A stretch of 64,000 nt of DNA from assembly GCF_056712565.1 (NCBI RefSeq), contig NZ_CM160072.1; one strand, written 5' to 3'. The number at the start of each line of letters is the position of its first letter. Within the stretch, counting starts at the first letter, position 1. This document shows positions 6,330 to 10,508 of the stretch, one piece after another. The notes beneath the pieces are model-generated. The model worked only from the letters and a program-made list of their open reading frames with translations, was not told the DNA's origin and did no database searches. Both the position numbers and the translations under genes were made by a program.

Positions 6330-7310
6330 GAAAAAGTTCTACCTTAAGGGTATATTGTTACTATCACGAGTTCATGATAGTTAAGTTTTTAGTAAAACAC
6401 GACATATGACGATACATATATTAGCAAAATTATGACAAATGAGGCTACCTTAACAAAAATTCATTAATAGCAAACACATAAATAAAGACTCTCCTACCAA
6501 AAAAACAGACTCTTCACTCCTTCTTAACTATTTTCATGAGAAATAATAAACAAGGAATTTATTACCTTTGAATACAAACTTATATATACAATGAACTTAA
6601 ACTCTTGAATCATTATCCAGAGAATATCATTAATTGGTGATGACCTAGCTATGCATGGCAGCATTCATGATAATGAGTATATACTAGCCAGAATGACACA
6701 AAGAGATATTTAACTAACTAATATATTGATAGTCAATGATGACAGATCGTAGTAATATATTAATACTTAGCCCTCTGAAATATCAAGTCATGTACGATGC
6801 TCCCGTTATTTTAATTTCGTTCTAGCTGTACTTTTGAATACAACCATAACTGATTATTGCCAACTGACTGAATGAAAAATATCAATAAATACAACAAACT
6901 TACTGCCTTTTCGTTTTATTTATAAGACGTTCCAACTACAAGAACAATATAGGCACATGATTATTCCAACAATACTGGACAAAAACTCCCGTATCTGAAG
7001 ATACAATAGGTGATAATTCTTTCAGGATTTTGCTCAACTATGGCCTGATGGGAGAGTCATGACGGAACTAAGGCCTTTACAAGCCAGAAGATTAGTCTTA
7101 ATGCGATCACAGTTCAACTTGCTACGACTGAAATCCGTAATAGCATATAAACTCTGTTTTTTTAACAGAAATGAAGATCTTCTTGTTGCATAAATGATGC
7201 TTCTCTGCCTCTGAAAAAGTAAATATAAAGTATATTTAATAAGATTAATTTTTATGATAGTGATAATTTATGATGGGGATTCATATGGCATATCTAAAAG
7301 GATAGATTAC

Positions 7311-7964
7311 ATGTTGAATTCTACAACATCTTCGGGAAAAAGAACCGGCATTTTAGCAATTGGTGCCCATCCTGATGATATAGAATTAGGATGTGGTGCA
7401 TCTCTTTCATATTATTCTAATGAAAAAGTATATATTATATCTGTTGTCATGACACCTGGTTGCTGTGGCGCAGAGTATATTGATCGTCACAAGGAATCAC
7501 AAGAAGCATTAAATATGTTAGGATGCAATAAACTAATCCCTCTAAATTTTGAAGATACCAGATTATATTTGCAAATAAAAGAGATGATATCATCTCTGGA
7601 ATACATAATTGAGAATGAAACGCCCCAGGATGTGGAAATTACTCGAGTTTACACCATGAATAATACTGACAGGCATCAGGATCACATTGCTGTTTATCAG
7701 GCATCAATGGTTGCCTGTCGTTATATTCCTCAAATACTAGGATACGAAACACCAAGTACATGTCTGTCATTTTTACCTCAAGTTTTTGAATCTGTAGATG
7801 AGGTCCATTTTAATAAAAAAATATTAGCATTACAAAAGCATAAAAGCCAGATCCATCGAAGATACATACAGCCAGAATACATAATTGCTCAAGCCAAATT
7901 CCGAGGACAACAGGTTAGTCATTCTATGTGTGAAGGTTTTGTTGTCCATAAGATGGTGTTGTAA
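7311..7964 (+). CDS. yaiS: PIG-L/LmbE-family deacetylase (YaiS-like); start uncertain (ORF opens at 7254)
   Basis: Motif AIGAHPDDIELGCG characteristic of the LmbE/PIG-L deacetylase family; first gene of a four-gene same-strand cluster in AT-rich DNA. Confidence 0.55.
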   Translation: MLNSTTSSGKRTGILAIGAHPDDIELGCGASLSYYSNEKVYIISVVMTPGCCGAEYIDRHKESQEALNMLGCNKLIPLNFEDTRLYLQIKEMISSLEYIIENETPQDVEITRVYTMNNTDRHQDHIAVYQASMVACRYIPQILGYETPSTCLSFLPQVFESVDEVHFNKKILALQKHKSQIHRRYIQPEYIIAQAKFRGQQVSHSMCEGFVVHKMVL

Positions 7965-7977
7965 CGGAGTAATAGAA

Positions 7978-9174
7978 ATGAAAACTTTGTTATTTATCTT
8001 CATGACCATAGCAATGTTGCTATGGTTTTTAAGTACGCTAAGACGTAAACCCTGTCAAAAGAAAGGCTGTATTGACGCCATTATACCAGCTTATAACGAA
8101 GGCCCGTGTCTGGCGCAGTCACTGGATAATCTGCTGCGTAACCCTTATTTTTGCCGGGTAATTTGCGTTAACGACGGATCCACGGACAATACCGAAGCGG
8201 TCATGGCGGAAGTCAAACGCAAATGGGGCGACCGCTTTGTTGCCGTCACGCAAAAAAACACCGGTAAAGGTGGCGCACTAATGCATGGACTAAAATACGC
8301 CACGTGTGATCAAGTATTTTTAAGTGATGCAGATACTTTCGTTCCACCTGATAATGATGGAATGGGCTATATGCTGGCAGAAATTGAGCGCGGCGCTGAT
8401 GCCGTTGGCGGAATTCCCTCCACCGCGTTAAAAGGGGCAGGTCTGCTGCCACATATCCGCGCCACCGTAAAGTTGCCGATGATTGTTATGAAGCGCACGC
8501 TACAGCAGTTTCTGGGCGGTGCACCGTTTATTATCAGCGGTGCCTGCGGGATGTTCCGTACTGATGTATTGCGTAAGTTCGGTTTCTCTGATCGTACTAA
8601 AGTCGAAGACCTTGATCTCACCTGGACGTTGGTGGCAAACGGCTACCGTATTCGGCAGGCGAATCGCTGCATCGTATACCCACAGGAATGTAACAGTCCG
8701 CGTGAGGAGTGGCGCCGCTGGCGGCGTTGGATTGTGGGCTACGCGGTCTGTATGCGCCTGCATAAAAGACTTTTATTTAGCCGCTTCGGTATCTTCAGTA
8801 TATTTCCTATGCTGTTGGTTGTGCTTTATGGCGTTGGTATTTATCTCACTACCTGGTTTAATGAATTCATCACCACCGGGCCACATGGTGTGGTGTTGGC
8901 AATGTTCCCGCTTATCTGGGTCGGCGTAGTTTGTGTTATTGGTGCATTTAGCGCCTGGTTTCATCGTTGCTGGTTGTTGGTGCCTTTAGCACCGCTTTCC
9001 GTTGTGTATGTATTATTAGCTTATGCCATCTGGATTATTTATGGACTTATTGCCTTTTTTACTGGACGCGAACCTCAGCGCGACAAACCCACCCGCTATT
9101 CCGCACTGGTGGAAGCGTCAACCGCTTATTCCCAACCTTCTGTCACAGGAACTGAAAAACTATCTGAAGCTTAA
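7978..9174 (+). CDS. yaiP: family-2 glycosyltransferase with C-terminal transmembrane segments (YaiP-like)
   Basis: 398 aa; GT2 motifs IIPAYNEGPCL and VNDGSTDNT plus a hydrophobic C-terminus; length equals the YaiP length I recall. Confidence 0.6.
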   Translation: MKTLLFIFMTIAMLLWFLSTLRRKPCQKKGCIDAIIPAYNEGPCLAQSLDNLLRNPYFCRVICVNDGSTDNTEAVMAEVKRKWGDRFVAVTQKNTGKGGALMHGLKYATCDQVFLSDADTFVPPDNDGMGYMLAEIERGADAVGGIPSTALKGAGLLPHIRATVKLPMIVMKRTLQQFLGGAPFIISGACGMFRTDVLRKFGFSDRTKVEDLDLTWTLVANGYRIRQANRCIVYPQECNSPREEWRRWRRWIVGYAVCMRLHKRLLFSRFGIFSIFPMLLVVLYGVGIYLTTWFNEFITTGPHGVVLAMFPLIWVGVVCVIGAFSAWFHRCWLLVPLAPLSVVYVLLAYAIWIIYGLIAFFTGREPQRDKPTRYSALVEASTAYSQPSVTGTEKLSEA

Positions 9175-9208
9175 TGCTAAAGAGAAAAATGTTCAGATTG
9201 CAGACCAG

Positions 9209-9733
9209 GTGATTATTGATGAAAGTGCCGGTGAGGTTGTTATCGGCGCGAATACCCGTATTTGCCACGGTGCCGTTATTCAGGGGCCGGTAGTGATTGG
9301 CGCAAACTGCCTGATAGGTAATTATGCGTTTATTCGTCCTGGCACAATAATCAGCAATGGCGTAAAAATTGGTTTTGCCACCGAAATTAAAAATGCGGTT
9401 ATTGAAGCGGAAGCAACGATTGGTCCGCAATGCTTTATTGCCGACTCGGTAGTTGCAAACCAGGCATATTTGGGCGCACAAGTACGTACCAGTAATCATC
9501 GTCTGGATGAACAACCCGTGTCTGTTCGAACTCCAGAGGGAATTATCGCTACCGGATGCGATAAATTAGGTTGTTATATCGGGAAGCGTTCACGCCTTGG
9601 TGTACAAGTTATTATTTTGCCTGGGCGAATTATTTCTCCGAACACACAACTTGGCCCGCGCGTGATTGTAGAACGTAATTTACCTAGTGGAACTTACTCA
9701 CTCCGACAAGAACTTATCCGTACAGGAGATTAA
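9209..9733 (+). CDS. yaiX: hexapeptide-repeat (left-handed beta-helix) acyltransferase (YaiX-like), apparently intact; start codon uncertain (GTG at 9209 or earlier in ORF 9023..9733)
   Basis: Repeated hexapeptide pattern (VIGANTRICHGAVIQGPVVIGANCLIGNYAFIRPG...) typical of LpxA/CysE-type acyltransferases. Confidence 0.55.
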   Translation: MIIDESAGEVVIGANTRICHGAVIQGPVVIGANCLIGNYAFIRPGTIISNGVKIGFATEIKNAVIEAEATIGPQCFIADSVVANQAYLGAQVRTSNHRLDEQPVSVRTPEGIIATGCDKLGCYIGKRSRLGVQVIILPGRIISPNTQLGPRVIVERNLPSGTYSLRQELIRTGD

Positions 9734-9734
9734 A

Positions 9735-10508
9735 ATGATAAAGCATACGTTATTAGTGCCGTTTTTTTTTAGTGCATTGCCCGCTTATGCCGGGTTAACT
9801 TCCATTACCGCGGGCTACGATTTTACCGATTATTCTGGCGAACATGGCAACCGTAATTTAGCGTATGCTGAACTGGTAGCAAAAGTTGAAAACGCAACGC
9901 TGCTTTTTAATCTTTCCCAGGGGCGTCGTGATTATGAAACTGAACATTTCAATGCCACTCGCGGCCAGGGTGCAGTCTGGTACAAATGGAATAACTGGCT
10001 GACAACCCGAACGGGTATTGCCTTTGCGGATAATACGCCGGTCTTTGCCCGCCAGGATTTTCGACAGGATATTAACCTAGCCCTGTTGCCAAAAACGCTT
10101 TTCACGACCGGTTATCGCTACACTAAATATTACGATGATGTCGAAGTCAATGCCTGGCAAGGCGGCGTATCACTCTATACTGGCCCGGTGATCACCAGTT
10201 ACCGCTATACCCATTATGACTCCAGCGATGCAGGTAGTAGTTATAGCAATATGATTTCCGTGCGTCTGAAGGACCCGCGCGGTGCTGGTTATACGCAACT
10301 ATGGCTAAGCCGCGGAACAGGTGCTTACACCTACGACTGGACGCCAGAAACACGCTACGGCAGCATGAAGAGCATCAGTTTGCAACGAATTCAACCGCTG
10401 ACTGAGCAACTTAATCTCGGGTTGACGGCAGGTAAAGTGTGGTTCAACACCCCAACCGATGATTATAACGGTCTGCAACTTGCAGCCCACCTGATCTGGA
10501 AATTCTAG
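9735..10508 (+). CDS. yaiO: outer-membrane beta-barrel protein (YaiO-like)
   Basis: 257 aa with signal peptide MIKHTLLVPFFFSALPAYA, alternating aromatic beta-strand pattern and C-terminal aromatic residue (WKF); RBS aggagat before ATG at 9735. Confidence 0.6.
   Translation: MIKHTLLVPFFFSALPAYAGLTSITAGYDFTDYSGEHGNRNLAYAELVAKVENATLLFNLSQGRRDYETEHFNATRGQGAVWYKWNNWLTTRTGIAFADNTPVFARQDFRQDINLALLPKTLFTTGYRYTKYYDDVEVNAWQGGVSLYTGPVITSYRYTHYDSSDAGSSYSNMISVRLKDPRGAGYTQLWLSRGTGAYTYDWTPETRYGSMKSISLQRIQPLTEQLNLGLTAGKVWFNTPTDDYNGLQLAAHLIWKF

Follow-up and report, generated by a model that had tools for sequence, protein, structure and literature searches.

An intact second-site version of the yaiS-yaiP-yaiX-yaiO cassette in a cobU/pks-adjacent island of Escherichia coli, with a proposed role in glycan synthesis

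In Escherichia coli K-12, the genes yaiS, yaiP, yaiX, and yaiO are located between tauA and frmR, with a copy of the insertion sequence IS2 inside yaiX; no functional study of any of the four was found in the literature searched. Known synthase-dependent systems for extracellular glycans modify the polymer outside the cytoplasm. A compact arrangement of a glycosyltransferase family 2 (GT2) synthase and an outer-membrane protein is represented in E. coli by NfrA/NfrB, whose glycan is the receptor of phage N4; NfrB carries a cyclic di-GMP-binding domain and NfrA is a large protein. Here, a stretch of 64,000 nt from contig NZ_CM160072.1 (RefSeq assembly GCF_056712565.1), referred to as the window, was analysed around four uninterrupted, co-oriented open reading frames (ORFs) at 7254-10508. 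The region proves to be a second-site version of the yai cassette, intact and maintained by selection; the cassette itself is a self-contained four-gene unit that is horizontally mobile across the Gammaproteobacteria.

The cassette genes and the region preceding them are as follows.

7311..7964, plus strand: yaiS-like gene, PIG-L/LmbE zinc de-N-acetylase, 217 amino acids (aa), Pfam PIG-L
7978..9174, plus strand: yaiP-like gene, membrane-integrated GT2 synthase, 398 aa
9140..9733, plus strand: yaiX-like gene, left-handed beta-helix (LbH; hexapeptide) transferase, uninterrupted, start uncertain
9735..10508, plus strand: yaiO-like gene, outer-membrane beta-barrel, 257 aa including the signal peptide
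6264..7310, no strand assigned: leader, presumed promoter/regulatory region, divergent intergenic, 31% GC, non-coding

A preliminary description of this DNA had named four same-strand genes for a deacetylase, a GT2 enzyme, an acyltransferase, and an outer-membrane barrel, matching the K-12 cluster in content and order. All four were found, each scoring above the Pfam gathering score (79 bits for PIG-L, 100 for Glycos_transf_2, 67 for Hexapep/LbH, and 94 for YaiO), and the match to K-12 was borne out, the PIG-L, GT2, LbH, and YaiO barrel genes following one another in this order, tightly packed on a single strand. Two further GT2 families, Glyco_tranf_2_3 and Glyco_trans_2_3, also exceeded their gathering scores on the yaiP-like product. 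The AT-rich non-coding leader described earlier was confirmed and extends over 1,047 bp (6264-7310; 31.0% GC) between the start of the IbrA-like gene (6263) and that of the yaiS-like gene. AT-richness is limited to this leader and the yaiS-like gene (35.5% GC) and does not, as had been stated, mark the cluster as a whole, since the yaiP-, yaiX-, and yaiO-like genes average 47.8% GC and the window 49.7%. For the yaiS-like gene, the start candidates were ATG 7311, preceded 9 nt upstream by AAGGA, the PGAP start at 7302, and the opening of the ORF at 7254; it likely starts at 7311 and not at 7254.

The window cluster and the K-12 yai locus share the four gene families, their order and strand, and a long AT-rich region upstream, but they differ in site, their leaders are unrelated, their YaiS proteins are 63% identical, and homology ends at the yaiO stop codon. 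The alignment proposed in the preliminary description, to distinguish the K-12 locus from a second copy, resolved to the latter. In strains SF-166, a blood isolate, and R9, the identical sequence lies beside ldtA-cobTSU, an IS4 fragment, a TonB-dependent receptor gene, and a gene pair similar to ibrAB; the window cluster is therefore a second-site version, situated in a cobU/pks-adjacent genomic island and distinct from the locus between tauA and frmR. In SF-166 it is no more than about 12 kb from clbA, and the window is 99.98% identical to this strain over 1-10587 and 11866-23609.

An intact cassette is also found at the core locus, for example in strain CRE78. The megablast identity of about 90% between the window cluster and the core locus is the mean of a mosaic: identity per 100 bp is 92-100% between about 8050 and 10450, except for a patch at 8254-8453 (79-86%), and 59-81% in the yaiS region. 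At the protein level, identity to the CRE78 copy is 63% for YaiS, 97.2% for YaiP, 97.4% for YaiX, and 93.8% for YaiO. In length, the window genes are equal to their homologues. Ratios of nonsynonymous to synonymous substitution rates (dN/dS) between the island and core copies were 0.06 for yaiP, 0.10 for yaiX, and 0.27 for yaiO, which places all three under purifying selection. Strain ECCNB12-2 has a third version, about 92% identical, in yet another island. Among the three chromosomal versions from E. coli that were directly compared, the synthase was at least 95% identical, whereas the PIG-L gene was the most variable cassette member within E. coli, with YaiS allele classes of 77, 72, 69, 64, 54, and 44% identity; this variability could reflect recombination or a change of substrate.

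The acyltransferase ORF is uninterrupted here, in contrast to the IS2-split yaiX of K-12, and truncation, which the preliminary description had regarded as fatal to its reading, was not seen, the ORF being of the same length class as its homologues from seven other cassettes. The intactness of yaiX had been presented as noteworthy, but it is the usual state: among the genome matches listed, an IS2-split yaiX was seen only in K-12-like strains, so that the uninterrupted gene is the norm and K-12 the exception. In addition, a CAG to TAG change (amber, Q186*) in the K-12-type yaiS cuts YaiS at residue 186 of 223, and a small gene, ykiC, has been annotated in the gap left by the truncation. The K-12 cluster is thus doubly defective (yaiX::IS2 and yaiS Q186*), whereas that of the window is intact, and K-12 is a poor model for the yai genes. 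It has been reported that a K-12 yaiO::kan mutant had no phenotype with any BASEL phage, a datum that says little on a role with phages because of this double defect. In strain CFT073, a transposon insertion in yaiO (c0467) was among the mutants with altered type 1 fimbrial expression.

The 4,179 bp comprising the cassette and its leader were covered to at least 80% in 838 of the 5,426 complete E. coli genomes (about 15%), the best match being at least 99% identical in 836 records; recurrence in hundreds of complete genomes excludes the assembly artefact against which the preliminary description had cautioned. The tauA-to-frmR stretch was covered to at least 80% in 4,248 genomes. With the two edges joined directly as the query, tauA and frmR were found within about 1.5 kb of each other in 596 genomes, in which the site is empty; in one of these, strain 22184, 305 bp and no yai gene lie between them. 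Empty and occupied sites have 38 bp next to tauA and about 100 bp next to frmR in common, the middle being unique to the empty site, and the core cluster therefore also behaves as an inserted or replaced block. The best match to the core locus was below 95% identity in 596 records, and those shown in this range were island-type copies of about 90%. The equality of the two counts suggests that genomes with an empty site have no copy other than a non-core one, in most cases that of the island; this would apply to about 70% of the 838 carriers, although the class below 95%, from whose size this is inferred, could hold other variants such as that of ECCNB12-2. Intact versions of the cassette are thus present at two or more alternative sites.

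This distribution bears on a further explanation, which appears quite unlikely: that the cassette is intact in sequence and yet a silent passenger, unexpressed owing to an AT-rich, possibly H-NS-bound leader and an adjacent IS2, and without phenotype. The length and low GC content (31%) of the leader, the general occurrence of AT-rich upstream regions in enterobacterial versions, the tolerance by K-12 of a doubly inactivated copy, the lack of any yai-like match in about 500 complete E. coli genomes, and an antisense RNA reported inside K-12 yaiP, where it was used as a control, would fit such a state; but purifying selection acts on yaiP, yaiX, and yaiO, the window copy is kept at 99% identity or more in 836 records, the 596 empty core sites are paralleled by 596 records with a non-core copy of about 90% identity as best match, and silencing in the laboratory does not equal lack of function.

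The order PIG-L, GT2, LbH, YaiO was kept, with unrelated flanks, in every context examined, about 12 further ones, among them Citrobacter braakii, Salmonella, and Stenotrophomonas, a Rep3/MobA plasmid of Acinetobacter baumannii, two IncF plasmids of Shiga-toxin strains, a distant metagenome contig, and two further contigs. A YaiP homologue was also present in 49 records of a plasmid collection, a few of which were chromosome-sized. No YaiP homologue was found in phage genomes at 1e-20, and nothing therefore points to a prophage-borne conversion module. Conservation is highest for YaiP, which shares 62-68% identity from E. coli to the Xanthomonadales and Acinetobacter; YaiO and YaiS diverge fast. 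The YaiO family is small, with 166 clusters (50% identity) at E ≤ 0.001 among 1.84 billion representatives.

As to function, the cassette probably encodes a compact synthase-dependent pathway for a glycan of the N-acetylglucosamine (GlcNAc) type edited at its N-acyl groups, a reading held here with moderate confidence. YaiP would be a processive synthase of the type making hyaluronan, cellulose, or poly-N-acetylglucosamine (PNAG), polymerising a uridine diphosphate (UDP)-N-acetylhexosamine, most likely UDP-GlcNAc, and threading the product through its own transmembrane channel; YaiS, in the cytoplasm, would strip the acetyl group from a GlcNAc unit of the precursor, primer, or chain end; YaiX, also cytoplasmic and similar to the C-terminal domain of GlmU, would restore an acyl group on the hexosamine amine; and the 14-stranded YaiO barrel would let the product pass the outer membrane. 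Expression would probably be set by the long AT-rich leader, possibly through silencing by H-NS, and possibly also by the IbrAB-like pair. The suggestion in the preliminary description that the cluster makes and exports a modified glycan agrees with the fold and profile comparisons. The product could be either a polymer or a short oligosaccharide.

YaiP, by fold and profile, resembles the hyaluronan, cellulose, and PNAG synthases. Its AlphaFold2 model (predicted local distance difference test score, pLDDT, of 78.6) shows a GT-A domain with one helix at the N-terminus and several long helices at the C-terminus, and the protein has the invariant motifs DGS..D, DAD, VEDLD, and RWRRW; motifs, predicted channel, and a fold match that includes the membrane part are those of processive membrane GT2 synthases. 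The best curated profile was PgaC_IcaA (TIGR03937; 9e-29), at 100.6 bits against a cutoff of 422, the score of a relative and not of an equivalog. YaiP, whose processivity and substrate are predictions, differs from the membrane-integrated processive GT2 synthases (hyaluronan synthase, BcsA, chitin synthase, and NodC) in its last motif, R-W-R-R-W instead of Q-x-x-R-W; it is much smaller than BcsA and the chitin synthases, and it has neither a PilZ nor another regulatory domain.

Searches of the PDB by sequence only, with the single sequence or a profile, reached no further than the generic N-terminal GT-A part of YaiP. There, matches to ArnC and GtrB (6e-7 to 5e-10) bring in another scheme, a very improbable one, in which a lipid-linked monosaccharide modifies an existing envelope lipid or glycan by the logic of ArnC/ArnD or LgmA/LgmC, YaiP forming undecaprenyl-phosphate-GlcNAc and YaiS converting it into the glucosamine form for transfer to lipid A or lipopolysaccharide. 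The pairing of a GT2 enzyme with a deacetylase is indeed known from aminosugar modification of lipid A. However, YaiP has the Glyco_trans_2_3 assignment and the RWRRW motif that typify processive synthases; neither a GT-C transferase nor a flippase was seen within the cassette or beside it in the contexts inspected; and YaiX and YaiO would be left without a role.

YaiS matched Pfam PIG-L (PF02585) at 4.3e-22, with 79.4 bits against a cutoff of 28.2, and its translation contains the metal-binding motifs GAHPDD and HQDH of PIG-L/LmbE zinc deacetylases, a family acting on the N-acetyl groups of GlcNAc. Fold and profile evidence likened it to chitobiose and GlcNAc-malate deacetylases, the closest solved relatives being the archaeal diacetylchitobiose deacetylases (Dac) and BshB; the NCBIfam BshB1 match (3.5e-18) was below its cutoff.

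These relationships also fit a product that is not a polymer, made by the logic of NodC, NodB, and NodL. YaiP would form a short beta-GlcNAc oligomer, YaiS would deacetylate its terminal residue, YaiX would re-acylate it, and the resulting chito-oligosaccharide-like molecule, a signal or a surface decoration, would leave through an oligosaccharide-sized YaiO channel. YaiP is minimal, its 398 aa including one N-terminal and about three C-terminal transmembrane helices, a NodC-like topology; the substrate of diacetylchitobiose deacetylase, nearest to YaiS, is a small soluble GlcNAc oligomer; both tailoring enzymes would be cytoplasmic, as in Nod factor synthesis; CymA and OmpG, the best matches of YaiO, pass oligosaccharides; and there is no periplasmic scaffold in the cassette. 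Set against this, YaiP reached 30 bits on the NodC equivalog profile, whose cutoff is 550, well under its match to PgaC_IcaA; NodB (a CE4 enzyme) and NodA belong to other protein families; and no NodIJ-like inner-membrane exporter is encoded in the cassette. The likeness to NodABC is thus one of analogy only, chain length cannot be read from sequence, and this Nod-factor-like scheme is considered unlikely.

For YaiX, the best solved match was the C-terminal acetyltransferase domain of ST0452 (2GGO/5Z09; residues 242-398), at 8.5e-23 over 157 aa, and the NCBIfam profile Arch_glmU was matched at 1.4e-37 over its C-terminal part, identifying a GlmU-type left-handed beta-helix. The YaiX family has its own invariant His, in the motif NHRLD, close to the position of His308 of ST0452, which, like His363 of E. 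coli GlmU, is presumably the catalytic base. The start of yaiX is placed by PGAP/RefSeq annotations at CTG 9140 or GTG 9209. Upstream, at 9107-9112, lies the code for a WW motif that distant homologues conserve at their N-terminus; it falls within the 152 nt over which the gene overlaps yaiP in the +1 frame and is included only by starts at ATG 9023, ATG 9041, or TTG 9050, none of which has a good ribosome-binding site, and no ATG, GTG, or TTG occurs between 9050 and 9209 in this gene. One database protein cluster, of 481 aa, reads as a YaiP-YaiX fusion.

YaiO belongs to the barrel family PF19413/TIGR04390 (183.9 bits against a cutoff of 32). Its N-terminal hydrophobic segment, a signal peptide, ends in AYA-G, and it was modelled as a 14-strand barrel (pLDDT 89.5) with the sugar channels CymA and OmpG as best fold matches; the polysaccharide porins BcsC, PelB, and PgaA gave scores of 12.6-13.6. 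Distant proteins with a YaiO domain have N-terminal extensions, some of them with a peptidoglycan-binding SPOR domain, and the gene of one SPOR-YaiO protein overlaps or adjoins a gene of the UDP-GlcNAc 2-epimerase family.

In overall composition the cassette is comparable to PgaABCD/IcaADBC, with which it shares a GT2 synthase with its own channel, a de-N-acetylase, and an outer-membrane barrel in a single small operon. It differs in that its deacetylase is a cytoplasmic PIG-L protein instead of a periplasmic CE4 enzyme, in the extra LbH transferase, and in the lack of a small partner similar to PgaD/IcaD; likewise, no CE4 PgaB and no 16-strand porin with tetratricopeptide repeats of the PgaA type are encoded. 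In contrast to NfrA/NfrB, there is no cyclic di-GMP-binding domain and no large NfrA-like protein; that system is nonetheless a precedent for the idea, put forward in the preliminary description, that the cluster is a potential phage receptor or receptor-masking determinant.

Several points weigh against a synthase-dependent pathway with N-acyl editing. YaiP is far under the PgaC equivalog cutoff, and its donor sugar and linkage are therefore guesses. YaiS and YaiX have no signal peptides, and how cytoplasmic enzymes would reach a chain translocated during its synthesis is unexplained; the cassette also contains no periplasmic scaffold. In a pairwise alignment, PHLSYVGDS of ST0452 faces GPQCFIADS of YaiX, with Pro/Gln at the position of His308, so that a transferase activity of YaiX is plausible but not secure. 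The fold matches of the barrel mostly reflect strand number, and the literature searched contains neither a function for any cassette gene nor a link to a glycan.

The cluster is an ordinary accessory cluster that has already been annotated, and its sequence in itself is not surprising; new here are the second-site mosaic copy, which is often likely the sole one, the double defect of K-12, and the recognition of a mobile unit for which a testable hypothesis can be given. A more far-reaching interpretation, put forward tentatively and with more doubt than confidence, is that the cassette represents a new type of synthase-dependent glycan secretion, with cytoplasmic N-acyl editing and a minimal 14-strand channel without periplasmic scaffold, mobile among the chromosomes, islands, and plasmids of Gammaproteobacteria. 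In many extraintestinal E. coli, where its only copy would adjoin the gene for a TonB-dependent receptor and IbrAB-like regulators, it would make a surface glycan that has been overlooked because the K-12 copy is doubly broken. If the cassette does produce a surface glycan in isolates from bloodstream and urine, this could be of importance for adhesion, immune recognition, or phage adsorption.

The leader is identical in SF-166 and R9, has ORFs of at most 46 aa on its two strands, and matched none of the upstream regions of other cassette versions. Promoter-like sites in it were not enriched (14 found versus 12.7 expected from shuffled sequences), a terminator scan did not exceed the shuffled expectation, and an Rfam scan of 6000-10700 at E ≤ 1 gave zero matches. 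In most enterobacterial versions the upstream region is long and AT-rich (27-36% GC; 40% in that of ECCNB12-2), these regions being unrelated in sequence from version to version. Their base composition (31% GC over 1,047 bp in the window) would fit with binding of a nucleoid protein such as H-NS.

The neighbouring features are the following.

5040-6263, minus strand: IbrA-like gene (PAPS-reductase/DUF3440), by Pfam and RefSeq names in SF-166
4411-5055, minus strand: IbrB-like gene (ParB-N-like), by Pfam and RefSeq names in SF-166
10588..11885, minus strand: IS2, outside the cassette, last ~31 bp absent

IbrA and IbrB are activators of genes for surface proteins in ECOR-9, and it is a matter of speculation that the IbrAB-like pair regulates the cassette. 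In PADLOC, the four cassette proteins had no match and the IbrA-like protein had merely weak matches to BrxP/DndC, attributable to its PAPS-reductase domain. In a Salmonella island, an IbrAB-like pair is again found about 4 kb away from the cassette; this island also encodes a YadA-like protein, and its PIG-L gene is immediately preceded by a gene for a PapB-like regulator. The island version of E. coli ECCNB12-2 is likewise near a YadA-like adhesin gene. A degraded PapB-like regulator, considered for the window leader by comparison with the Salmonella version, was rejected, tblastn having found nothing.

The IS2 reported earlier just downstream of yaiO was found to begin 79 bp past the yaiO-like stop codon and is 97.7% identical to K-12 IS2 over 1,303 bp. 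The match breaks off 31 bp short of the orfA-proximal end, so the element falls short of a complete IS2 (about 1.33 kb with both inverted repeats), and it is fused at a short palindrome, ATCACTTAAATAAGTGAT, to an older inverted IS2-like remnant. It replaces 177 bp present downstream of yaiO in SF-166, including a perfect hairpin with arms of about 29 bp, and the yaiO-IS2 junction of the window was present in 0 of the 5,426 complete E. coli genomes.

The TonB-dependent receptor gene (1867-4040 in the window) consists of two ORFs, 1867-3024 and 3021-4040, owing to a 1-bp deletion near 2974 relative to SF-166, in which it is a single gene of 715 aa; it is a pseudogene, unless the split stems from a sequencing error in a run of C. 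An IS110-family element at 12303-13741, with an ISEc45-like transposase gene at 12549-13682 on the minus strand, is absent from this site in R9 and present in both the window and SF-166.

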